Source: a virus (taxonomy: Duplodnaviria; Heunggongvirae; Uroviricota; Caudoviricetes). From it: a stretch of 41,435 bases of DNA. The position numbers and the translations under genes were made by a program. This document shows positions 18,280 through 41,435 of the stretch, in pieces. The stretch lies in IMG/VR virus record IMGVR_UViG_3300028886_000065. One strand, written 5' to 3'. The first letter of the stretch is position 1. Each line of letters begins with the position of its first letter. Below the pieces are notes generated by a model. It had not been told where the DNA came from, ran no database searches, and was given only the letters and a program-made list of their open reading frames with translations.

Positions 18280-18966
18280 ATGGTTAATGAAACATCAACT
18301 CCTTATGAAAGGCTGCTTCAGCTCAGAGAGTGGCTACAAGTCAACGATCCAAAGTGCAAGACCAATGAATCGCAAATCCTACGCAGATTAGGATTAGGGA
18401 GCGGCTACTTCGGCACATCGGAAAAACAGGAAAACAAGTCCCTGCGAGAAAGTACTTACAAGAAGATTGGCGAGGCATGGCCAGCCGTCAATTTGGAATG
18501 GTTGAGGACAGGCGAAGGCGAAATGTTCACAGAACCCGTCATTTTTGATGAAGAAACAGACGACGGCGTGCCATACTATGACGTTGACTTCCTTGGTGGA
18601 TTCAACGATAGGGTCAACGACCAGTCAATCTACCCATCCTATTACATCAACTTCCAGCCATATAACAAGAAGGGTAACGTTTGGTGCAACATCGTCGGAG
18701 ATTCCATGTCACCGCGTATCAATAGCGGGGACAAGATTTGCATACAGCCAGTGAACAGCGTTGACGATATAATCTACGGAGAAATCTACGCCATCATCAC
18801 CGTCAATGATATGCGCACCGTCAAGTGGGTCACACGTTCACCAGAACCAGGCATGATTCGACTCGTTCCAGAGAACAAAGACCCACGATACGGCGACTAT
18901 CAGGACATAAGAAAGACAGACATCTTTCGCATCTTCAAAGTCATCGGCTCACTCCGTTCATTCTAA
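18280..18966 (+). CDS. CI/LexA-like repressor with an S24 autopeptidase domain
   Basis: N-terminal HTH ending VNLEWLRTGEGEMF; catalytic Ser (GDSM) and Lys (RTVK). Confidence 0.9.
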   Translation: MVNETSTPYERLLQLREWLQVNDPKCKTNESQILRRLGLGSGYFGTSEKQENKSLRESTYKKIGEAWPAVNLEWLRTGEGEMFTEPVIFDEETDDGVPYYDVDFLGGFNDRVNDQSIYPSYYINFQPYNKKGNVWCNIVGDSMSPRINSGDKICIQPVNSVDDIIYGEIYAIITVNDMRTVKWVTRSPEPGMIRLVPENKDPRYGDYQDIRKTDIFRIFKVIGSLRSF

Positions 18967-19260: not shown

Positions 19261-20397
19261 ATGAAGATAGCAAAAACAAGGGTTGTCTTTGACAGACACC
19301 ACAAGGCCACAAAGAAAGTGGCTGCGTCAATTTACATTGAAGTTTCGTATGACCGTGTTCGCAACTTCTATAACACGGGAATCAAAGTTTGCTCTCATCA
19401 GTTCAAGGATGGGAAGGTAATCAACTGTGCGCAGATGGCAGAATACCAGGAACGGATTAACAACCTGCGTAACACCATCGAGAACTATATCAACGAGAAG
19501 GTAAAGGCAAAGGAAACATTTTCACTTGACAACCTCCATCAGTACATGGAAGGAAGGATATGTGGCAATGGCGATTCTTTCCTTCGCTTCATGCTCACAA
19601 AGATAATGGAACGACCTATTGCAGAATCAACCAGAAAAGGGCATATCTCTATTCATAGGACATTGAAAGCGTGGGGGCATATCCGGCAATTCAGTGACAT
19701 TACGGAGGCTAACATCAAACTATGGGATGATTTGGCACGAAAGAACGCACAGAAAGCTAAAAGTGTGTGGAGCTATCATAAGGTCTTGAAGATATATATA
19801 AAAGAAGCCGTTATGCTTGGTTACATCGATCGCAATCCATACGACTACATGAAGTTCAAACGAGATAACCCGTCAGGACACCGCTTCATCACAATGGAAG
19901 AGATAGACAAAATAAAAGAACTTCAACTAACGGAGAAGGCTCTGATTGAAGCACGGCTATGCTTCCTGTTTCAATGCTACACAAGCCTATCATATTCCGA
20001 CATGAGGCTTTTTGACATGGCTAATGTAAAAGAAGTGGACGGGAAATTGCGTATGCGCGGACTTCGCGTTAAGACACATGAGGAATATAACATCACTCTC
20101 ATAAGACCTGCAATAGCCATTCTCGAAGAGTGTGGGTATAACCTGCCAGTTCAGGATATGCACTTCTACAACCGCAACCTACAAGCGATTCAATACAGGG
20201 CTGGCATTACAACAAGAATAACGTCACACGTAGGGCGACATACCTTTGCCACTACAATAGCACTTAAAAACAAAGTGCCTATTGAGGTTTTGCAAAGGGT
20301 TTTGGGACATAGCAGCATCAGGACAACACAGGTCTACGCAAAGGTACTACAGGAGTCTGTGGATGAAGAGTTTGACAGACTCGATGCCATTATCTAA
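19261..20397 (+). CDS. int: Tyrosine integrase, Bacteroidetes type
   Basis: N-terminal arm-binding domain; YTSLSYSD; RVKT; HVGRHTFAT; LGHSSIRTTQVY. Confidence 0.95.
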   Translation: MKIAKTRVVFDRHHKATKKVAASIYIEVSYDRVRNFYNTGIKVCSHQFKDGKVINCAQMAEYQERINNLRNTIENYINEKVKAKETFSLDNLHQYMEGRICGNGDSFLRFMLTKIMERPIAESTRKGHISIHRTLKAWGHIRQFSDITEANIKLWDDLARKNAQKAKSVWSYHKVLKIYIKEAVMLGYIDRNPYDYMKFKRDNPSGHRFITMEEIDKIKELQLTEKALIEARLCFLFQCYTSLSYSDMRLFDMANVKEVDGKLRMRGLRVKTHEEYNITLIRPAIAILEECGYNLPVQDMHFYNRNLQAIQYRAGITTRITSHVGRHTFATTIALKNKVPIEVLQRVLGHSSIRTTQVYAKVLQESVDEEFDRLDAII

Positions 20398-24607: not shown

Positions 24608-24745
24608 AACTTTCAGATTATATATGTCGAATATGACGAGTCAGCTCTGAGATTCAAGCTGCACACCATCAACAACTTCCTCGAAGACCTTGTTGTATTC
24701 AGCATTTATGAAGTGCTTGGAAACACTTTCGAGAATCCAGAACTA
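24608..24745 (+). pseudogene. Start-less 3' remnant of a YopX-like gene
   Basis: NFQIIYVEYDESALRF...IYEVLGNTFENPEL matches the YopX C-terminal EVIGNIxENPELL pattern. Confidence 0.55.
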
Positions 24746-24784
24746 ATACGCAAAGATAATATCAAACAATTAAACACTATAACT

Positions 24785-25033
24785 ATGGAAAGAAAAAAAA
24801 TAGATTCAAAAGTTAAAGAACTTATCGCTCAATTCGCAGACTGCGAGGTATCAATCATCAATGACAACATTGACCTTGAAAATGACCTCGGACTGGATTC
24901 TATCGATCGACTGGAACTGGTCATGAACATTGAAAAAGAGTTCAACGTATGTGTTTCGGACGATGTAGCTGACAACGCTACCACCGTGAAAGACTTTGTT
25001 GACATGACAGAAAAAGCCATTTTAAATAATTAA
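24785..25033 (+). CDS. acpP: Acyl carrier protein (82 aa)
   Basis: KVKELIAQ...DLGLDSIDRLELVMNIEKEFNV..SDDVA..ATTVKDFVD; acidic; DS motif Ser intact. Confidence 0.88.
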   Translation: MERKKIDSKVKELIAQFADCEVSIINDNIDLENDLGLDSIDRLELVMNIEKEFNVCVSDDVADNATTVKDFVDMTEKAILNN

Positions 25034-26202: not shown

Positions 26203-27060
26203 ATGGAATCTTATAAGATTATAAACGGAAAATCAATATATACACCGAAAGGTGCTGCATTGGAATACGGACGTGTCGGCTGTAACTTCTACATTGGCTG
26301 TCCGCATGATTGCGAATATTGTTACCTCAAACGTGGCGCACCATCGAAGCAACTTGGAGGTAAAGAGGTTCGACTGAAGAAGTGCTTCAAGGATGAAATG
26401 GACGCTCTCGAAGTATTTTGCAAAGAGGTTCGGAAGCATATAGACCACCTCAAAGAGACGGGCGTATTCTTCTCTTTCACTACCGATCCAATGATTCAAG
26501 AGGCAATAGGTCTCACATTGTCTGCATGGAATATGTGCATTTACAATGACATTCCTGTTAAAGTGCTGACAAAGGATGCTTCTTTCGTTGACCACAAACG
26601 GATGCAGTTGAACTACAAGTCAAATGCAGTAAGGGATTTAGTGCATTTCGGTTTCACTCTTACAGGTCGTGACGATATGGAGTCTATGGCATCAAGCAAC
26701 GCTGACCGAATAAAGGCTATGAAACGGCTTCACGATATGGGCTTTAAGACTTGGGCGAGTATTGAGCCTGTCATTGATTGGGAATCATCGTCAAAAATGG
26801 TCTTAGAAACATTAGGCTGTTGTGATCACTACAAGATTGGCTTGCGAAGCGGTGTCAAACGTGACTACTACGACTTCAAAGAAACTGCAGATATAGTAAA
26901 CTCTCTTACTGTTGCTATTAGAAACGCTGGTCGTACTGTCTATCTCAAACAGAGCATCCGCAACTTCTTAGGAAATGCAATGCCTGGTGATGATTGGCAG
27001 AAGATTCTTAGCCGTACCGTTGACATGGATGGCAATGAATGGAACAACCTACAAATATAA
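26203..27060 (+). CDS. Radical SAM protein (SplB-like clade)
   Basis: NFYIGCPHDCEYCY (CxxxCxxC); FSFTTDP; VLTK; SIEP. Confidence 0.85.
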   Translation: MESYKIINGKSIYTPKGAALEYGRVGCNFYIGCPHDCEYCYLKRGAPSKQLGGKEVRLKKCFKDEMDALEVFCKEVRKHIDHLKETGVFFSFTTDPMIQEAIGLTLSAWNMCIYNDIPVKVLTKDASFVDHKRMQLNYKSNAVRDLVHFGFTLTGRDDMESMASSNADRIKAMKRLHDMGFKTWASIEPVIDWESSSKMVLETLGCCDHYKIGLRSGVKRDYYDFKETADIVNSLTVAIRNAGRTVYLKQSIRNFLGNAMPGDDWQKILSRTVDMDGNEWNNLQI

Positions 27061-30050: not shown

Positions 30051-30641
30051 ATGAAACATATTCAATTATGTGTGCCTGACGATCAGGCTGAACTTTTTGC
30101 AGAGAAACTTTCTGCTTTAGTCAAAGAGTGTGGAGGTGACATCGACACCAGTAACAAGCCCAATCCATTCATCTACAATGACAAAATCCCTATCTGGGAG
30201 AGAATCAAGACCGTTGAGGATGCCATTGCCATAACTGGAATGACATTGCCGGACAACATCGACGAACTGCCTCTTGACGTACAGGCAATGCTAAAACTCC
30301 GTATCATCTGTGCCGCTTACAACGAACTGAAGGCTGATCAACTCGACCAGTTCCCGAAGTTTACGCCTGACGAATACCGATACTATCCTTGGTTCTACCT
30401 CTACACTCAGGAAGAGATTGATGCCATGACAGAGGAAGAGCGAAGCCGTGTTCTCGGTCGCTCGTACTACTACGCGAGCGCGCACGCGGGTGTCGCCTGT
30501 TCGTTCGCGAGTCACGCTGCATCGTACTCGAGCGCGAGCTACGGCGGGCGGCTCTGCTTCAAAACGGAAAAACTCGCAAGCGAGTGCGGAAAGCGTTTCA
30601 CGAAATTGTGGGGGCAGTTCTTTGCTTTTCTCACAGAATAG
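30051..30641 (+). CDS. Second DGR target protein (196 aa), non-structural context
   Basis: C-terminal RVLGRSYYYASAHAGVACSFASHAASYSSASYGGRLCF is encoded by VR2. Confidence 0.9.
   Translation: MKHIQLCVPDDQAELFAEKLSALVKECGGDIDTSNKPNPFIYNDKIPIWERIKTVEDAIAITGMTLPDNIDELPLDVQAMLKLRIICAAYNELKADQLDQFPKFTPDEYRYYPWFYLYTQEEIDAMTEEERSRVLGRSYYYASAHAGVACSFASHAASYSSASYGGRLCFKTEKLASECGKRFTKLWGQFFAFLTE
30445..30558 (+). repeat. DGR variable repeat VR2 (remote, inverted relative to TR)
   Basis: 114-nt match to TR with 16 mismatches, all at TR adenines. Confidence 0.95.
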
Positions 30642-31601: not shown

Positions 31602-32165
31602 TTAAAACAGACTAACTGTTACGCCAACACCTATAAACGGTTCAAACTGCTTGGAGAGGAATCCATAACCATAACCGCCAATGATTCCGACATTCCATCG
31701 CCGGAACTTCTTTTGTTCAATAGTTTCGGTCTTGACAATAGTCATTGTAACTTCTCTCTGCCTTATGAAGATACTATCAAGTCTCGTTTCATAACCGCTA
31801 ACGTATGCAGTATAGGAACTATCAGAGTAAACTTTCTGCATAATAGGCACTTCTACCAAAACACTATCTCCCACAAGTTGGTTCTCTGCGGTTTCCACGA
31901 AAAGAGTATCAATAGCAACCGTTCCAGATGCGTCATAGTCTGGTTCTGCAACCTTAAGCACCCGTGTAACATACCTCACGACAACACTATCCCGTGGAAT
32001 AGGCTGGTAGAAAGTTACGGTATCGACAACAGTGACATACGAAGTGTCAGAGTGAAAGGATGGCTTGCCTCCTTGACTGACACCAGCACGCCATCCAAAA
32101 TAGCTGGAAAGGAACATAAGACCAATCAGTCCTACGACCCAAAGCAGATTCTTCAAAGCATCCAT
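31602..32165 (-). CDS. Membrane-anchored lysis-cassette protein, possibly spanin-like
   Basis: N-terminal TM helix; directly after the endolysin; C-terminal GIIGGYGYG...FIGVGVTVSLF. Confidence 0.55.
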   Translation of the reverse strand: MDALKNLLWVVGLIGLMFLSSYFGWRAGVSQGGKPSFHSDTSYVTVVDTVTFYQPIPRDSVVVRYVTRVLKVAEPDYDASGTVAIDTLFVETAENQLVGDSVLVEVPIMQKVYSDSSYTAYVSGYETRLDSIFIRQREVTMTIVKTETIEQKKFRRWNVGIIGGYGYGFLSKQFEPFIGVGVTVSLF

Positions 32166-32599
32166 AACTTAACCTCCTCTGCTCTACGTCGCATTAAACC
32201 AGGCAACACAGTGAGCTTACCGTTGACACGCCCTTTGTTCCATTTCTTGAACTCAGCGGCGATCTCTTCATCCTTCGCACAAGCAAGAATTTTCTTCTTC
32301 AAGGTTGAGGTGTTGAAATTTCCCTCTCCTACATTGAAGATGAAACTCACAAGAGCATCAAACTGTCCTTGACGAAGATTCAGCCTCAAATCGTTAATCA
32401 GCTTCTCGCATGGCTTAATGTCTTCAATTAGCAGGTTATCGGCTATCTCCTGAGTGATAGTCATATCTTGTTTGACACCTCTTGTATGACCATAACCTAT
32501 CGTCCAGACACCTGCAGGACACTTATATGCGTTGAGTTTAAGACCCTCACTCGTCTTGATAAGAGCCAGTCCGTCATTACTTGTAGTCATAAGTCGCAT
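32153..32599 (-). CDS. Endolysin, GH24 phage lysozyme
   Basis: SEGLKLNAYKCPAGVWTIGYGHT (E-x8-C/D-x5-T triad); QGQFDALVSFIFNVG; LPGLMRRRAEE. Confidence 0.95.
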   Translation of the reverse strand: MRLMTTSNDGLALIKTSEGLKLNAYKCPAGVWTIGYGHTRGVKQDMTITQEIADNLLIEDIKPCEKLINDLRLNLRQGQFDALVSFIFNVGEGNFNTSTLKKKILACAKDEEIAAEFKKWNKGRVNGKLTVLPGLMRRRAEEVKLWML

Positions 32600-33105: not shown

Positions 33106-33576
33106 TTAAGTTAGACAATACACAAAGATTGTCAGCATACAAGAAACTTCTACCCAGAAAAAGTTCTTGCTGCTGTCTTTCTCAAACAGAGTGTAGCCGA
33201 TATACAGGAACCACAACAACAGGATAAGAGGCTGATTAAAAGCCACAAGCAATTGTGAAGTGATTCCTGCGACGGCTGCACACACATAATGAATAGTGTT
33301 TCGTTCCTTTGCTACAAGAGGCAATGCGCCGACACCCATGATTCCTGACACCATGAAGAAAGCAAGGAAACGTGTAGCATCGGAAGACTTCTCCATCAAC
33401 ATAGGCACAATGGCGAATGAGACGAGAAACATCACGATAGTAAACACCCATTCCCATTTCCGCGAAAACTGATACACAGTGGCAGAAATGCTTTCCGGGA
33501 TGCTTTTCGTGACGATGGCCATGGCCACGACATACGCGACAATGACAATCATTGCAATGATAACCAGACTACTCAT
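33106..33576 (-). CDS. Multi-pass membrane protein
   Basis: About 5-6 hydrophobic segments; 8-nt overlap with the upstream stop. Confidence 0.75.
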   Translation of the reverse strand: MSSLVIIAMIVIVAYVVAMAIVTKSIPESISATVYQFSRKWEWVFTIVMFLVSFAIVPMLMEKSSDATRFLAFFMVSGIMGVGALPLVAKERNTIHYVCAAVAGITSQLLVAFNQPLILLLWFLYIGYTLFEKDSSKNFFWVEVSCMLTIFVYCLT

Positions 33577-34072
33577 AACCGAATACGCTCATGTCAAGAC
33601 CATCCTTCTCCTGCCAGCCCTCATCGAGAGTTTGCTGGATGAAAGAGACGGCACTAAGGTAAAACCTTGTCAGTTCCTCAACACTCTCAAACTGGTAGTA
33701 AGTCGGATTACCATCTCCATCCTCACCGAGTTTGAATGTCATGGGCAAACTTGAACCATTGGTAATCATCGCCACACGCTGAGCCTCAGAAAAGTTACGC
33801 TGGTTCTCTTCACTGAGCCATACAGCAATTGTATCATCAGAATCGGCGGGTTTCCACTTGAATCCTCTCAGAATCTTTTCGTCAACGCACTCATTGATGT
33901 GGGCAATGAGGACGCTGTGAACTTCATCCTTGGTTGGAATGTGTGTAAAAACATGCCGATAGTCATAGCCTTGACCATCTTCTTCGCCATAGCCGTAGAT
34001 GAGCATGGCGCGTTTCGTACCGAAAACAAGCAATTGGTCATGTCGTTCGGTTGCTCCAAAAGTCTTTTCCAT
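33569..34072 (-). CDS. DUF4376-like tail-associated protein
   Basis: VWLSEENQRNF...LPMTFKLG...ELTRFYLSAVSFIQQTLDEGWQEKD. Confidence 0.6.
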   Translation of the reverse strand: MEKTFGATERHDQLLVFGTKRAMLIYGYGEEDGQGYDYRHVFTHIPTKDEVHSVLIAHINECVDEKILRGFKWKPADSDDTIAVWLSEENQRNFSEAQRVAMITNGSSLPMTFKLGEDGDGNPTYYQFESVEELTRFYLSAVSFIQQTLDEGWQEKDGLDMSVFGYE

Positions 34073-35450: not shown

Positions 35451-35695
35451 AATCTTGGATAAGTTTTCTTCTTCGATTCATGCGGTCATAGGGCTTTCGA
35501 CATCATTGCTGAAACTACTTGACCATAATAGACCGCACCCTGTGATGTTCCGGCTTTCCGCATTTCTGCGCTGTTGCCGAGGCTCAAATCCCTCGCTGGC
35601 TTCCATCACCTATCTCGTAGGTGTTCGACGTAGCAACGATTGTGTCTGAAGGTCTGCCCAACCCGTGAGCAAGTTTTCAGATGCAGAGTTTCGAT
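35451..35695 (-). ncRNA. TR-RT spacer, structured 3' part of the DGR template RNA
   Basis: 245 nt with no credible ORF; CACCTA-CGAGA-TAGGTG; GCGGTC/GACCGC; several GAAA/GCAA loops. Confidence 0.6.
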
Positions 35696-35698
35696 TTA

Positions 35699-35812
35699 GC
35701 AGAGCCGCCCGCCGTTGTTCGTGTTCGAGTTCGATGCAGCGTTATTCGTGTTCGAATAGGCGACACCCGCGTTCGCGTTCGCGTTGTTGTTCGAGCGACC
35801 GAGAACACGGCC
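35699..35812 (-). repeat. DGR template repeat TR (114 nt, 28 adenines, 12 AAY codons)
   Basis: GGC CGT GTT CTC GGT CGC TCG AAC AAC AAC GCG AAC ... AAC AAC GGC GGG CGG CTC TGC. Confidence 0.97.
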
Positions 35813-35928: not shown

Positions 35929-38900
35929 TCAAAGTACATCTTCCTCGTTATCGAACTTTCCGAAGAAGCAGAGCCGCCCGCCGTAGAGCGTGTACGAGAC
36001 CGATGCACCGTTATCCGTGCTCGAATAGGCGACACCCACGTACGCGTTCGCGAAGCCGCCCGAGCGACCGAGAACACGGCCTTTACTTGAATTAGATGAC
36101 TGATAACAGGCATATCCAGTGGCATAGACACTATCACCTGCATAGGCAGAAACAACAATGTCGCAGTAACGACCGAAACGGACACGGGCGACATTGCTTG
36201 CGGCATTTGCAGTTGCAGCCTTGACACGACGCTCGTTGCCGTCCTGTTGTTTGATGTTGTAGGTATAGTCAACAACCCATGAACTTTGCTCGACACGGTG
36301 GGTGCTCAAGAAGACTGCGAACGACGGGGCGTTAAAGCAGCCGTTATCCGTCCACTCGTACATTGAAGCTGTCCAAGCTTCCAGACCCCACATCTTGTTT
36401 AGTCCATTGGTGTCCGATGAAGAACCTCCACTTAGACGGGTGTCACCCATACCGACACTATTCCTCAAACCTGTCTGGTACGATGACATAGAACCTTTAC
36501 CGCAAATGCTTTCAACATCGCGAGTGCCAAACCAAGCCATTATCAAGTTTGCCATATCCTTTGATGTCTCATAAGGTACGGTAGTGTACTCACCATCATC
36601 GACATTCGTCTGTGACGTGCGGATGCGGGCGAGATTGTAGAAGTCTTGCGCCGTACCATTCAACGTCGTAGATGGGATGCTGCCAGTTGGATTACCGTCG
36701 CTGTCATACGACCAGTCGTTGTTGTACGTGGAAGTACCGTTTCCTCTCGAAGTGCTCTTGCCGCTCAATGAACGGAGTCCAGAAGTAGCAATACCTCCAG
36801 TAGTAACACCTACTGCATGACCCTGATACAGACCGATAAGTTCTGCCTTGTGTTCTACCCAATTCGGCTCAATAGCTTCTGTCTCAACGGAATCCGTGAG
36901 AAGGATAGCGGCATAACCAGCCACCGTGCCTGGTGTTTCAGTATCGGGTATCGGCATTGCACCGAAAGCCGTTCCGTTGGTGAACAATGACTCAACGCTC
37001 GCAAGGGTGCTGAAATACAGATAGACAGCACCAACAGGGATATTTGTAAAGATGTAATCACCTATCTCATTGTCGAAGTCACCGGGGTTTCCTGAATAGT
37101 CCGTCATGGTGAAATGTTGCGCACTGATAGTCTTACCATCGACATCGGCAAAGACAAAACCTGCAAAACTATGCTTCAGACCGGGGAATCTCACCTGCTT
37201 GTAGCTGCTGACATTCACACGATACGTGTTGTAAAGTGTTGCTGTTCCCAACCAGTTTTCAACAGAACTGCCAACAGCTATTTCGCCACTGCCAGTGATG
37301 TCAAGCCAACTGCCGGATATATCCAGACACCTTCCCTCATACTTCGTAACGCCAGAGTCTGTCAGTGCAACGAGAGTTTCCCTCGTTGAAGAATTTGTAG
37401 GCTTGGTTTCCATACCAGACAAGAACAGATGCTTCTTGGCTTCCAGATAGTTGTTCACGCCCTTATAGAAATATTTTGGAACATACAGGAAAGCGTCTTG
37501 ACCAACTCCATCGTTATCGGTGATGGCATTGGAGGCACTTGTCCCGTCGGCAAACAATCCGTAGTTAGACTTTGACAGCTTCGTCAAGTGCATCAATCTC
37601 TTCGACTCACCAGTGTCAGGGTCGGTAGTATTCCTAACCATACCCAAAACAGGCTGACACTTGTCATGGATAACTTTCACATGACCACTTCTGTTGTAGC
37701 CATTTGGATTAGCAACGTCATACTCTTGACCTTCTACACGATAGTCATAGCCAGTCTGGTTGTCTTCATTGGTGATGTTCGCTGGGTCGCTTTCAGCATC
37801 GTGGAAGATGTATTCCGTGTACTGAGCTTCTTCCAATTCCAAACCACATTGAGCAAAGAAACTCTTCACCTGTGCAAAGGTGTACTCAACACCACCTACC
37901 GTAACTGTGTTAATAACATCTATCAACTGAACTTTACCGATAAGTGCGGGATAGGTCTGTTCCGTGCCTTGTGCGGTCAAACCGCGATAGCCGGACATGA
38001 ATGGGAGAAGAACGGATGAACGGACACGACCAGATATTCCTTCGATACGGACGTGATCAATGTTCTGGCATTGGGCGATGAGGGTCTGCCAGCTCAGATT
38101 CGGACATTCGGCGAAGTTCAAGGCTGTGATATTTGACGCACCTTGCAATGTAAGTCCGGCATGTGTCAAGTTGGGCAGGTAACGCAACGTAAGAGTTTGC
38201 AGCGTTGACGGCATAACCAAAGTCTGCAACGGAGAACCTTCGGGAAGTATGATACTTGTCAGACTTGTGCCACCTGCAAGCAACGTGGTCAAACGGGTAT
38301 GCTTGCTGATGTCAAAGACTCCTGCTGTACCTGTGTGGACGGCGGTCTGACCAGTTATGTCCACATATTCCAACTTTGACGTATTTCCGAAAGTCAGAGG
38401 CGCATTTGCAATACCATTGGTTGCTGGCATCGTTAGTTTCGACAGCATCGCACAAAGCGAAAGATTGACAGTGCCGTTCAACTGGCTACCCATGTTGGTG
38501 AAGTCAAGTTCTTTGATGCAACTTGCGCCACCGAGCATCAACGGGTCATTGGTTGCCAACGTCTGAGTGAAGTTGAGCGTCAAACTCTCACCTGCGGCGG
38601 CTCTATCCGGCCCTTGTAGCCAGAGTCCGTTGAGTTTGTAGCCGAAATAATACAGGTCGCCACTCTTCAGCGTCATTGATGACGGTGTATCATTCGCGTT
38701 GCGGACAACAGTGAACGTAATCACGTCACCATTGTAGTTTCCTGCACCATAGCGGGCATCAAGCAGGCGAGCACGGTCTGTCAAGAACTGAGTGCGGTGC
38801 AACTCCCTGTTACCAGTCAGAGTATAGACGTAGTTCATGTCATCAATCGTGTCGATGTACTTCAACTTTCCACTCTTGTTGTACTGGCGTTCACTCCAGT

Positions 38901-41435
38901 TTCCTTGCATCTTCACGTTGAACTCATTCAGCATAACTTCCGTGGTCAACTGATTGCGCAGGTTGGATGCGCAAGTCTTCAGTTCGTCCTCAAAGTTTGC
39001 CAAAACGAGACACCACAACCAACTGCTGTGACCCTCAAATGCGTATTTGGCACGTTCGGAGTCGTAAGTGTCACGGGTAACGTTGTAGAGATATACCATG
39101 AAAGCGTCGTTACGGATTGACATGGCGGTATCACCATCGTAATAGGTTGAATACCATATCAGTCCATCCCATGTACGCCAGATAATGTTCTTAGCGCGCT
39201 GGTCAACTGATGCCCAATAGTCCGTGAACAGATAATAGGTCAACAAGTGATTGACATTGAAGTACTGGTTTGCCTCATTCTTGAACTTCGTTGAGACCCA
39301 CTTGGCTTTTGACACATCACTCCAACCTTGTTGCGTACCGTAATCGGGGTTACTACGCATGGCAGAAGGAACACAGTCGTAAATCCAACCCATCAAACGC
39401 TTGATTGCAGTCTGCGCACCACCCCAATCCGCATATTTGCCTGTGCCGATGGTTGACCAAACGGCATCTTCTGGATAGTTGAACTCAAAACCGTTGTCAA
39501 ATTCTGCTGCCAACTGATTGGCCAAAGCGGTACTATTTGCGGAACCTGCGGGCTGGAACAACGTCATTGGAGAAGCATTGTTCAATGCCTCAAGGGAGAT
39601 AGGTTTGGTATCAGGACCGACAAGAACCATGTTTGGCTCTTCATCTGTGCCCTGGTTCTCATAAGCACGGAAGTCAACGGTGTTGCCACCGCTATCCTTG
39701 ACACCGCTCATGCCGAAAATCTTATCTGACTTCGATTTCTCGTTGTTCAACACGAATTGACCGCAATAGGTCAACGTGCCGTTTTCGCTTGTTCCGGCAT
39801 AGACATCACATGGAATACCATCAATGGCTTGGAGAACCTTTGCATCGTATTCTTGAGGTGGTGTGTCAAGGTGTAGCTGGTGCATGATATTGTGGAACAG
39901 GTGTGCGCCACCAGTATTCATAACCAACGAGGAATCAACAAAGTCGGTCTTGGCGCAAAGAACGGCTTGCGCAATACTGTTGCCACTGCCACGAAGAGCA
40001 TAACCGCTTGCTGTGTCAGTAACATCAATGCCGCCAATGACCAAGGAACGGGCTGCATCGCCCTGCTGTGTGGTAAGGTAGATGCGAAGGTTCTTGTATG
40101 GGTACTTCACACTTGATGTACCCTGAATCCTCATGCGAACGTTCCTTGCTTCAAAACCATCACCAATGGTGTTGCCTTGATCGTCAAGAGGAGGTTCCCA
40201 TTTCACAAGGTCGGCCTTGAAGTTTTCTTTCTTATCCTTGCAACGGAACATCTGACTCAGACCTGTACCACTTCCTGCGGCTGCTCCATCGGAGGCGGTA
40301 TCTGTACTACGAATGATAGTCAGAATACCACGACCCTTGTTCAGCAACGTATCGTGGTCAATGGCGATATTACCGTCAGAGTCGGTGGTGTTGTTCATGT
40401 TACCTACGGCATTGCGGGTATGAGTGCTCTGAATCATGGCTGCAGTCGGACGGTCGATAATCCAGTTTGACAAGGCTTCGTCTGAACTCAACGGAGTGCG
40501 GTAGTAACGTAGGCTGCGGATGCGGACATCGGCTTTGTCTGAGTCAATGGAAATGCCGACGGGTGTTGTCTGACGCAAGCTGTTGACGTAAGTGTTTGCA
40601 CGGCTTAATACGCCGTTGATGAACAGCATGGCAAGACCACGACCGTTAGTAACTGGCTGCACAACGAAAGCAAGATGAATCCACTTGTCAATGGCTATGT
40701 TCATTGCCGTGCTGTGAGGACGCACGATATAGAGGTCTTCTGCATCGTCGCTGTCTGACTCTATAACGGCTTCATAATACGTCTTCCCGCTGATTGCTGT
40801 CGTGTCAGAAGTGAGTGAATAGGAGTGGTCGCCTATTTTTTCGTAGTAACCAGAGGAAGAGATGTCCGTACCTGACGTAACAGTAACCTCGGAGAAACTG
40901 ATGTAGTTGCCCTCTGGATCAACAACTTTCTCAGCGGTCTTGATTTCTTCAACGCCACCAAAGAACAGTCCTGCCTCTTCGGTCGTGACCTTGATACCCA
41001 TCGGATATCCGTTTCCGTCGTTGTCACAGAGGCAGTGAATGACGGTTGCGCCGCGCTCCATGACCTGAGAAATCATTATCTCCATTTCGAGAGTCATGCC
41101 ACGGTTCTGGATAGAATAGTCACCATCTGAAACGTCCTGAACGAATGGCTTGACATCAATGAGTGCCTTCGCGCCGTTCGTCAAGAGCAAGGCATCAACA
41201 CCGTCACTACCGCGATTCCAGCCGTTCGTGCGCCAGTCAATACCTGTGAACGTGGTGATGCCACCCCAATCTGCCGGATTGGATTCGCCGTTGCTGCGAC
41301 CAAGAGCTGTCAGTTTCGTTCTGTAACCAACCGTCTCGGTCTCGGTTACACCTGCTGCTGCGGTTACGGTAACGGCGAATGTGCGTACAGATGTACCGTT
41401 TGTGATAGTCATGGTGTGGCTACCAGACATATCGA
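35929..41435 (-). CDS. Large DGR-targeted tail/adhesin-like protein (>1833 aa, 5'-truncated by the window)
   Basis: LamG/ConA-like segment (WIHLAFVV...LFINGVL); CotH-kinase-like segment (AKTDFVDSS, VDQRAKN, YYDGDT); leucine-rich repeats; C-terminal CLec-type VR (GLEAWTASMYEWTD...GRVLGRS...GGRLCF); frame still open at the window edge. Confidence 0.9.
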   Translation of the reverse strand, partial: DMSGSHTMTITNGTSVRTFAVTVTAAAGVTETETVGYRTKLTALGRSNGESNPADWGGITTFTGIDWRTNGWNRGSDGVDALLLTNGAKALIDVKPFVQDVSDGDYSIQNRGMTLEMEIMISQVMERGATVIHCLCDNDGNGYPMGIKVTTEEAGLFFGGVEEIKTAEKVVDPEGNYISFSEVTVTSGTDISSSGYYEKIGDHSYSLTSDTTAISGKTYYEAVIESDSDDAEDLYIVRPHSTAMNIAIDKWIHLAFVVQPVTNGRGLAMLFINGVLSRANTYVNSLRQTTPVGISIDSDKADVRIRSLRYYRTPLSSDEALSNWIIDRPTAAMIQSTHTRNAVGNMNNTTDSDGNIAIDHDTLLNKGRGILTIIRSTDTASDGAAAGSGTGLSQMFRCKDKKENFKADLVKWEPPLDDQGNTIGDGFEARNVRMRIQGTSSVKYPYKNLRIYLTTQQGDAARSLVIGGIDVTDTASGYALRGSGNSIAQAVLCAKTDFVDSSLVMNTGGAHLFHNIMHQLHLDTPPQEYDAKVLQAIDGIPCDVYAGTSENGTLTYCGQFVLNNEKSKSDKIFGMSGVKDSGGNTVDFRAYENQGTDEEPNMVLVGPDTKPISLEALNNASPMTLFQPAGSANSTALANQLAAEFDNGFEFNYPEDAVWSTIGTGKYADWGGAQTAIKRLMGWIYDCVPSAMRSNPDYGTQQGWSDVSKAKWVSTKFKNEANQYFNVNHLLTYYLFTDYWASVDQRAKNIIWRTWDGLIWYSTYYDGDTAMSIRNDAFMVYLYNVTRDTYDSERAKYAFEGHSSWLWCLVLANFEDELKTCASNLRNQLTTEVMLNEFNVKMQGNWSERQYNKSGKLKYIDTIDDMNYVYTLTGNRELHRTQFLTDRARLLDARYGAGNYNGDVITFTVVRNANDTPSSMTLKSGDLYYFGYKLNGLWLQGPDRAAAGESLTLNFTQTLATNDPLMLGGASCIKELDFTNMGSQLNGTVNLSLCAMLSKLTMPATNGIANAPLTFGNTSKLEYVDITGQTAVHTGTAGVFDISKHTRLTTLLAGGTSLTSIILPEGSPLQTLVMPSTLQTLTLRYLPNLTHAGLTLQGASNITALNFAECPNLSWQTLIAQCQNIDHVRIEGISGRVRSSVLLPFMSGYRGLTAQGTEQTYPALIGKVQLIDVINTVTVGGVEYTFAQVKSFFAQCGLELEEAQYTEYIFHDAESDPANITNEDNQTGYDYRVEGQEYDVANPNGYNRSGHVKVIHDKCQPVLGMVRNTTDPDTGESKRLMHLTKLSKSNYGLFADGTSASNAITDNDGVGQDAFLYVPKYFYKGVNNYLEAKKHLFLSGMETKPTNSSTRETLVALTDSGVTKYEGRCLDISGSWLDITGSGEIAVGSSVENWLGTATLYNTYRVNVSSYKQVRFPGLKHSFAGFVFADVDGKTISAQHFTMTDYSGNPGDFDNEIGDYIFTNIPVGAVYLYFSTLASVESLFTNGTAFGAMPIPDTETPGTVAGYAAILLTDSVETEAIEPNWVEHKAELIGLYQGHAVGVTTGGIATSGLRSLSGKSTSRGNGTSTYNNDWSYDSDGNPTGSIPSTTLNGTAQDFYNLARIRTSQTNVDDGEYTTVPYETSKDMANLIMAWFGTRDVESICGKGSMSSYQTGLRNSVGMGDTRLSGGSSSDTNGLNKMWGLEAWTASMYEWTDNGCFNAPSFAVFLSTHRVEQSSWVVDYTYNIKQQDGNERRVKAATANAASNVARVRFGRYCDIVVSAYAGDSVYATGYACYQSSNSSKGRVLGRSGGFANAYVGVAYSSTDNGASVSYTLYGGRLCFFGKFDNEEDVL
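35968..36081 (-). repeat. DGR variable repeat VR1
   Basis: 114-nt match to TR with 17 mismatches: 15 at TR adenines and 2 at cytosines. Confidence 0.97.

Follow-up and report, generated by a model that had tools for sequence, protein, structure and literature searches.

The locus described here was studied in a window of 41,435 nt, which is the whole stretch of DNA analysed and forms part of the genome of a large temperate gut/rumen Bacteroidales phage (virus record of 105,413 bp, with direct terminal repeats). The temperate gene set of this phage includes an integrase (19261-20397) and a CI-like repressor (18280-18966), and further phage genes encode RecT/RecE-like proteins, a DnaB-like helicase, a methyltransferase and ThyA; no DNA near-identical to that of the phage was found in the phage collection. 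The DGR of this phage comprises a reverse transcriptase (RT), a template repeat (TR) and two VRs, and these three repeats are the only copies across the whole 105-kb genome. VR1 lies in a giant tail-like gene beside the DGR core, and VR2 lies in a small gene that is remote from the core, as had been described before: it is 5.14 kb away and inverted, with the lysis cassette intervening (Table 1).

Table 1. Features of the DGR locus, with window positions, and gene settings of homologs of the remote target in other phages.
Feature	Position	Strand	Remarks
196-aa remote DGR target gene	30051-30641	+	phrog_11581 family; from ORF list
VR2	30445-30558	+	encodes residues 132-170 (SRVLGRS...GGRLCF) of 196
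Lysis genes between VR2 and DGR core	31602-32599	-	DUF6808 protein and phage lysozyme
DGR reverse transcriptase, 450 aa	34098-35450	-	RVT_1, E 6e-13; IGLRSSQ, YCDD
Non-coding TR-RT spacer	35451-35697	-	without Avd-like ORF; local hairpin, not significant
TR, template repeat	35698-35811	-	12 AAY, 1 TAT and 2 ACG codons (VR frame)
VR1	35967-36080	-	3' end of tail-like target gene; 15 A-site and 2 non-A mismatches to TR
VR1 target gene, 2284 aa, 3' part in window	35929-41435	-	start outside window, at genome position 20166
Versailles homolog			between NinB/Orf and replisome organiser
LoVEphage homolog			among methyltransferases, Holliday-junction resolvase and Lar-like gene
BT-TP2 homolog			first gene after cro-like HTH; adjoins repressor and integrase
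L017 and L018 homologs (more distant, metagenomic)			beside RecT, NinG, Dam and cytosine methylases

The RT carries motifs of the DGR type (I/LGxxxSQ and YxDD), at residues 197 and 229, respectively. With respect to Avd, the interval from the VR1 target to the RT contains no ORF of at least 40 aa, bar frames overlapping the TR, and no Avd match was obtained among the ORFs that follow the RT; an unrecognised accessory factor may yet be present. Directly 3' of the RT there is a DUF4376-like ORF (33569-34072, - strand; weak match, E 0.006), the BT-TP2 counterpart of which (L020:42256-42750) is annotated as a DUF4376 protein, and this ORF may be a conserved accessory gene of Avd-less Bacteroides phage DGRs. 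The lysis cassette consists of the DUF6808 protein (31602-32165) and the lysozyme (32153-32599), in an order that is kept in relatives.

At the C-terminus of the VR1 target, an FGE/CLec-like motif (WGLEAW..YEWT) can be read by eye from the sequence, and a Pfam search with the last 523 residues gave no match. The two non-A differences between VR1 and the TR are a C>T at repeat position 43 and a C>G at position 73, and VR2 has none of this kind. These two mismatches suggest either that the proximal target has drifted since its last homing or that the RT makes non-A errors.

VR2 aligns with the TR over 114 nt without gaps, and all of its mismatches (16/16) fall at TR adenines, of which there are 28 in the 114 nt (hypergeometric P = 2.4e-12). 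The preliminary description had reported this adenine-restricted match along with an identical 3' end (GGCGGGCGGCTCTGCT), taken as the IMH, and both the match and the identical end were reproduced; the TR had been placed at 35699-35812, which is one base off. The TR and both VRs share a GC-rich end, GGCGGGCGGCTCTGC, immediately 3' of which the sequences diverge, the TR reading TAA and both VRs reading TTC. VR1 and VR2 have eight substituted sites in common, and the same base is found at only two of these eight, which argues that they were written independently and agrees with the independent retrohoming events that had been proposed. VR2 is placed near the 3' end of its target, and the template adenines lie in AAY codons, so that stop codons cannot arise; the earlier count of 12 AAY, one TAT and two ACG codons was confirmed, and the figure of about 8e15 stop-free peptides derived from it is arithmetically right. 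A 5-bp hairpin (ACTCG-CAAG-CGAGT) occurs 15 nt past VR2; it is not significant and is not kept in relatives.

The remote target, its family and its gene neighbourhoods

The 196-aa protein encoded by the VR2 gene matches phrog_11581, a family of no assigned function (E 1.3e-35; residues 44-193 against profile positions 39-193 of 200). In a large protein collection it has 602 homologs, and a profile search of 1.84 billion representatives at E <= 1e-3 gave a family of 789 clusters (50% identity), whose members are mostly 180-200 aa in length and have a common core corresponding to residues 43-190. No Pfam domain was found in the 196-aa protein or in any of 113 family members (0/113), and domain fusions above threshold were likewise absent from the longer members of the family. 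A Tad2-like match in P0217 was partial and below threshold (19.9 bits against a cut-off of 25) and was rejected. The N-terminus of the 196-aa protein (MKHIQLCVPDDQAELF...) is charged and, by eye, not signal-like, and the maximal Kyte-Doolittle mean over 19 residues is 0.89, which bears out the description of the protein as one without a TM segment; with its gene lying outside the structural module, the target is non-structural by position, as had been claimed.

Two further observations concern the N-terminal part of the family. Residues 2-26 of the 196-aa protein (P0001; 30054-30128), with the pattern KxIxLxVPDxxAELFAEKLSALVKE, resemble by eye the strand-helix start of a ribbon-helix-helix protein; this segment is without Pfam support and lies outside the family core 43-190. 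Many relatives, including L016:10001-10804 (P0003) and the P0021 cluster, are called with a 71-aa N-terminal extension, in which there is a CxxC...CxxC-like motif with weak zinc-ribbon matches, and which may either be genuine and in frame or reflect a start called too far upstream.

Likeness between the two targets is confined to the part encoded by the VR, as had first been noticed from the VR-encoded peptide. A BLASTP comparison of the 196-aa protein with the C-terminus of the VR1 target aligned residues 127-170 only, while hhalign comparison of the family profile with seven VR1-type C-termini aligned residues 133-170 only, and matches of the 196-aa protein to tail-protein PHROGs were limited to residues 129-173, again the VR-coded part. 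Given that the alignments are limited in this way, the scaffolds of the two targets share no detectable similarity, and the original proposal that one TR serves two unrelated scaffolds holds to this extent.

Only one gene follows the VR2 gene in its + strand accessory operon, which converges on the lysis cassette, and the VR2 gene keeps this position in sister phages. The genes of this operon are mostly of no assigned function. Of its ORFs, the one at 24713-25033 (+) codes for a product resembling an acyl-carrier protein (PP-binding, E 8e-13), and the one at 26203-27060 (+) gives a weak radical-SAM match (E 2e-5) that is below the Pfam cut-off. At the place of this operon, relatives have PP-binding, DUF5131, YopX and adenylosuccinate-synthase genes.

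Beyond the sister phages, homologs of the 196-aa protein at 32-40% identity are found in LoVEphage, BI-TP1, PV4-TP1, BT-TP2 and Versailles, with tblastn against the first three giving 37-40% identity. The homologs of LoVEphage, Versailles and BT-TP2 each have a remote VR of their own, derived from a different TR and with mismatches at adenines only, and a remote VR together with a proximal VR on the tail side is seen in the present phage, LoVEphage, Versailles, BT-TP2 and the sister phages L010, L012, L013 and L016. The phrog_11581 family is thus a recurrent remote DGR acceptor, in at least four Bacteroides/Bacteroidales lineages and under at least four different TRs. The settings of the gene differ among these lineages (Table 1), and as its neighbours in the present phage are almost all without assigned function, any 'defence island' argument here is borrowed from the other lineages. 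The Versailles homolog has been labelled a 'tail protein' through an HHpred/PHROG match, and the PHROG scan of the 196-aa protein limits such a match to the VR segment.

Variation of VR2 among relatives

Evidence for the activity of VR2 comes from comparison between samples, in which sequencing runs are represented by assembled (Logan) contigs. When the best 120 of the 602 homologs were aligned, the 12 AAY-coded residues (139-141, 143, 145, 152, 154, 155, 159, 161, 163 and 164) were hypervariable, with an entropy of about 3 bits and 11-14 residue types at each, the TAT- and ACG-coded positions had intermediate entropy, and the flanks RVLGRS and GGRLCF were near zero. With the 15 A-coded codons set aside, the closest homologs show 95-97% identity, and of these 15 only one or two agree; the VR2 peptide differs in each of 30 members drawn from two 90%-identity clusters.

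The sister phages L010, L012, L013 and L016 have TR, VR1 and VR2 in the same layout. Where the TR of L010 or L016 departs from that of the present phage at non-A positions, the changes recur in both VR1 and VR2, with zero or one non-A mismatch in each VR. Such a transfer of non-A changes from the TR into both VRs is a form of concerted evolution that only continuing retrohoming into both explains. In the present phage, the absence of non-A mismatches from VR2, as against two in VR1, indicates that the last homing into VR2 is no older than that into VR1. On these comparisons, VR2 is very probably a working second, remote target of the DGR of this phage. That VR2 might instead be a fossil of past retrohoming, in a gene that has ceased to be a DGR target, was named as a refuting possibility in the preliminary description and could be entertained from the single genome in the window, but VR2 is the repeat with the fewer non-A mismatches, relatives with a nearly identical scaffold each have a different VR2, and TR point changes of sister phages are carried into VR2, which together contradict a fossil target and leave it a negligible chance.

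Several observations from individual runs and relatives can be added. Run X3 has a contig over VR2 with 21 differences in 444 nt, as against a single one in 901 nt of the contig next to it. Contigs of X3 and X7 break off around VR2, which is compatible with hypervariation and is not countable as evidence for it. A metatranscriptome contig (X18) spans 30069-30302 of a relative, with possible DNA carry-over.

In the sister phage L012 (IMGVR_UViG_3300011005_000556), VR2 (L012:2670-2830, +) contains a 27-nt in-frame insertion, which duplicates a GCCTCCTCG-NAC-TCG unit and has no counterpart in the TR or VR1 of L012; template slippage during retrohoming may have produced it. In L013, a 110-kb relative (ENA ERZ920178 scaffold_99), the TR (L013:14857-14970, -) matches over the 3' 73 nt only and its 5' third is unrelated sequence; VR1 and VR2 nonetheless have diversified 5' parts, and in this lineage the 5' part of the two VRs may no longer be rewritten.

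Predicted structure and possible role of the 196-aa protein

An AlphaFold2 model of the 196-aa protein based on a diverse alignment of 113 sequences reached a mean pLDDT of 81, with residues 135-164 unmodelled (pLDDT <50). An earlier model from a shallow alignment of homologs 72-90% identical had a pLDDT of 49 and was unusable. The preliminary description had looked to AlphaFold for a CLec-like fold with a surface-exposed VR; a scaffold was indeed modelled, but the CLec-like fold and the exposure of the VR, which falls in the unmodelled part, were left unsupported.

With the predicted scaffold as query, Foldseek returned nothing from the PDB at E <= 1e-3, an exhaustive VIA search gave a best Z of 3.6, and a second look with VIA gave nothing. 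Searches of AFDB clusters, BFVD and the ESM Atlas (structure), as well as an ESM Atlas sequence-feature search, yielded uncharacterised homologs and one weak SMI1/KNR4 row. The latter is an AFDB cluster that was automatically named 'SMI1/KNR4 family protein' (E 5.6e-3; TM 0.39/0.50) and constitutes a weak SUKH lead; no Pfam match for SUKH was found in the 113 members, and no SUKH chain was among the VIA rows. Sequence and profile searches of the PDB gave only matches to NDUFB7 and TIM44, which were rejected as spurious. No CLec chain was found in the structure searches, a result that does not establish a fold distinct from CLec, and a CLec domain has been reported for the Quimbyvirus homolog (Benler et al., 2021; PMC8008677).

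By analogy with the DGR of BPP-1, the TR RNA would be reverse-transcribed with adenine infidelity, and the resulting cDNA would replace each VR, guided by the common GC-rich 3' end. The 196-aa product is predicted to be a soluble, early-expressed ligand binder that acts in the cytoplasm after DNA entry, the cytoplasmic location being suggested by the missing export signals together with the recurrent early-region location of the gene. A putative surface of 38 residues, with 12 fully randomisable positions and rich in Tyr, Ser, Asn and Gly, would be kept diverse, and this diversity could let some phage genomes in a population bind a variable host or rival-phage factor. An intracellular role in phage-host or phage-phage conflict (counter-defence, superinfection or host-factor binding), as proposed in the preliminary description, is given a chance approaching even. 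A narrower version, in which a distinct non-lectin scaffold with a captured VR cassette serves as an intracellular 'antibody-like' early protein against variable defence or rival-phage proteins and is kept across Bacteroidales lineages, is possible but distinctly less probable.

The alternative that survives best is that the 196-aa protein is a virion accessory adhesin or decoration, which binds variable cell-surface or mucosal glycans as the tail protein would. Its VR peptide stems from the same template as that of the tail-like target, the VR segment matches tail-protein PHROGs and the Versailles homolog bears a 'tail protein' label, the gene adjoins the late/lysis operon in the present phage, and its non-structural position is compatible with a virion role. 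However, the tail-protein likeness stays within the 38-44 VR-coded residues, the Versailles label is taken from an HHpred/PHROG match rather than from experiment, and four other lineages place the gene among early, recombination or methylase genes, far from virion genes, which makes a virion adhesin unlikely.

Somewhat less likely again is a lysogeny-expressed 'moron', that is, a hypervariable sensor or excluder of superinfecting phages that benefits the host and is not a counter-defence factor. The phage is temperate (with its integrase and CI-like repressor), and the gene lies in an accessory operon that adjoins the lysogeny region and is made up mostly of genes without assigned function; in addition, bacterial DGRs are reported to vary putative intracellular antigen sensors (PMC10907252). 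Against such a sensor, the protein has neither a fused nor a conserved neighbouring effector, STAND or kinase domain, and the place of the BT-TP2 homolog after a cro-like gene points to a lytic early operon. The intracellular binder predicted to act after DNA entry is retained here as the preferred reading.

Comparison with known DGRs

DGRs of phages are commonly interpreted as means of altering host range through tail proteins. That a soluble second target recurs in early regions suggests a further use of targeted hypermutation, in a process that follows adsorption, and this idea is already in print for Quimbyvirus/LoVEphage. The novelty implied at the outset for a DGR that diversifies a small remote protein was overstated, as Benler et al. 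(2021; PMC8008677) had already placed the Quimbyvirus/LoVEphage homolog in a defence-related island and recognised it as a non-structural protein that serves as the second target of the DGR. Dual-target arrangements have also been published in Nature in 2025 and, with experimental evidence, for the Roseburia phage Shimadzu, and distal second VRs near counter-defence genes have been noted again (PMC12629997). Remote targets were, by its authors' account, undetectable by the approach of the global DGR survey (Roux et al., 2021), so that the phenomenon is under-counted and not unknown. The dual-target DGR with a small remote protein is therefore a known arrangement, of which the present phage is an additional lineage, from the ruminant gut.

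What is added here is that one family is a recurrent remote acceptor under at least four TRs, and that its scaffold, for which there is a confident model without a solved relative, has no detectable likeness to the proximal target. The family is abundant, its members are small, and some of them are in culture (LoVEphage-type isolates, BT-TP2 and Versailles), which offers a practical entry to the ligand of a non-structural DGR target.

The DGR of BPP-1 (mtd-avd-TR-brt) serves one target only, includes an Avd gene and has a defined hairpin past its VR. The present system resembles it in that retrohoming is adenine-specific and directed to a VR close to the target's 3' end, in the GC-rich common 3' end and in an RT with IGxxxSQ. 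It departs from BPP-1 in serving two targets, in lacking an Avd ORF in the interval from target to RT and in having no conserved hairpin past VR2.

A closer example is the DGR of Shimadzu, where one TR likewise serves two VRs, one in an RT-adjacent tail gene and one in a gene without assigned function (orf43). Sequencing showed that both of these VRs mutated in culture and in mice, and weaker selection was reported for VR2 alleles than for VR1 alleles (Cornuault et al., bioRxiv 10.1101/575076). Mutation at TR adenines was established there by read analysis of both VRs, whereas activity in the present phage is deduced from comparative data; the host of Shimadzu, in contrast to that of the present phage, is a Firmicute, and orf43 is likened to the 196-aa protein by arrangement alone.

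The closest known system is that of Quimbyvirus/LoVEphage. The present phage differs from LoVEphage in being a 105-kb temperate phage with direct terminal repeats from a bovine gut sample, as opposed to a 71-kb phage, in the sequence of its TR, in an RT that is a single ORF instead of being split over three frames, in the 5.1 kb distance of the remote target, and in the neighbours of that target, which are unassigned genes and the lysis cassette and not methyltransferases. In both systems, the remote target is a protein of about 195 aa with the VR near its C-terminus, is encoded on the other strand and away from the structural module, and carries a remote VR of a TR that serves a tail-side target too; the two proteins are homologous, with 38-40% identity over 73% of the query, and belong to the same PHROG.
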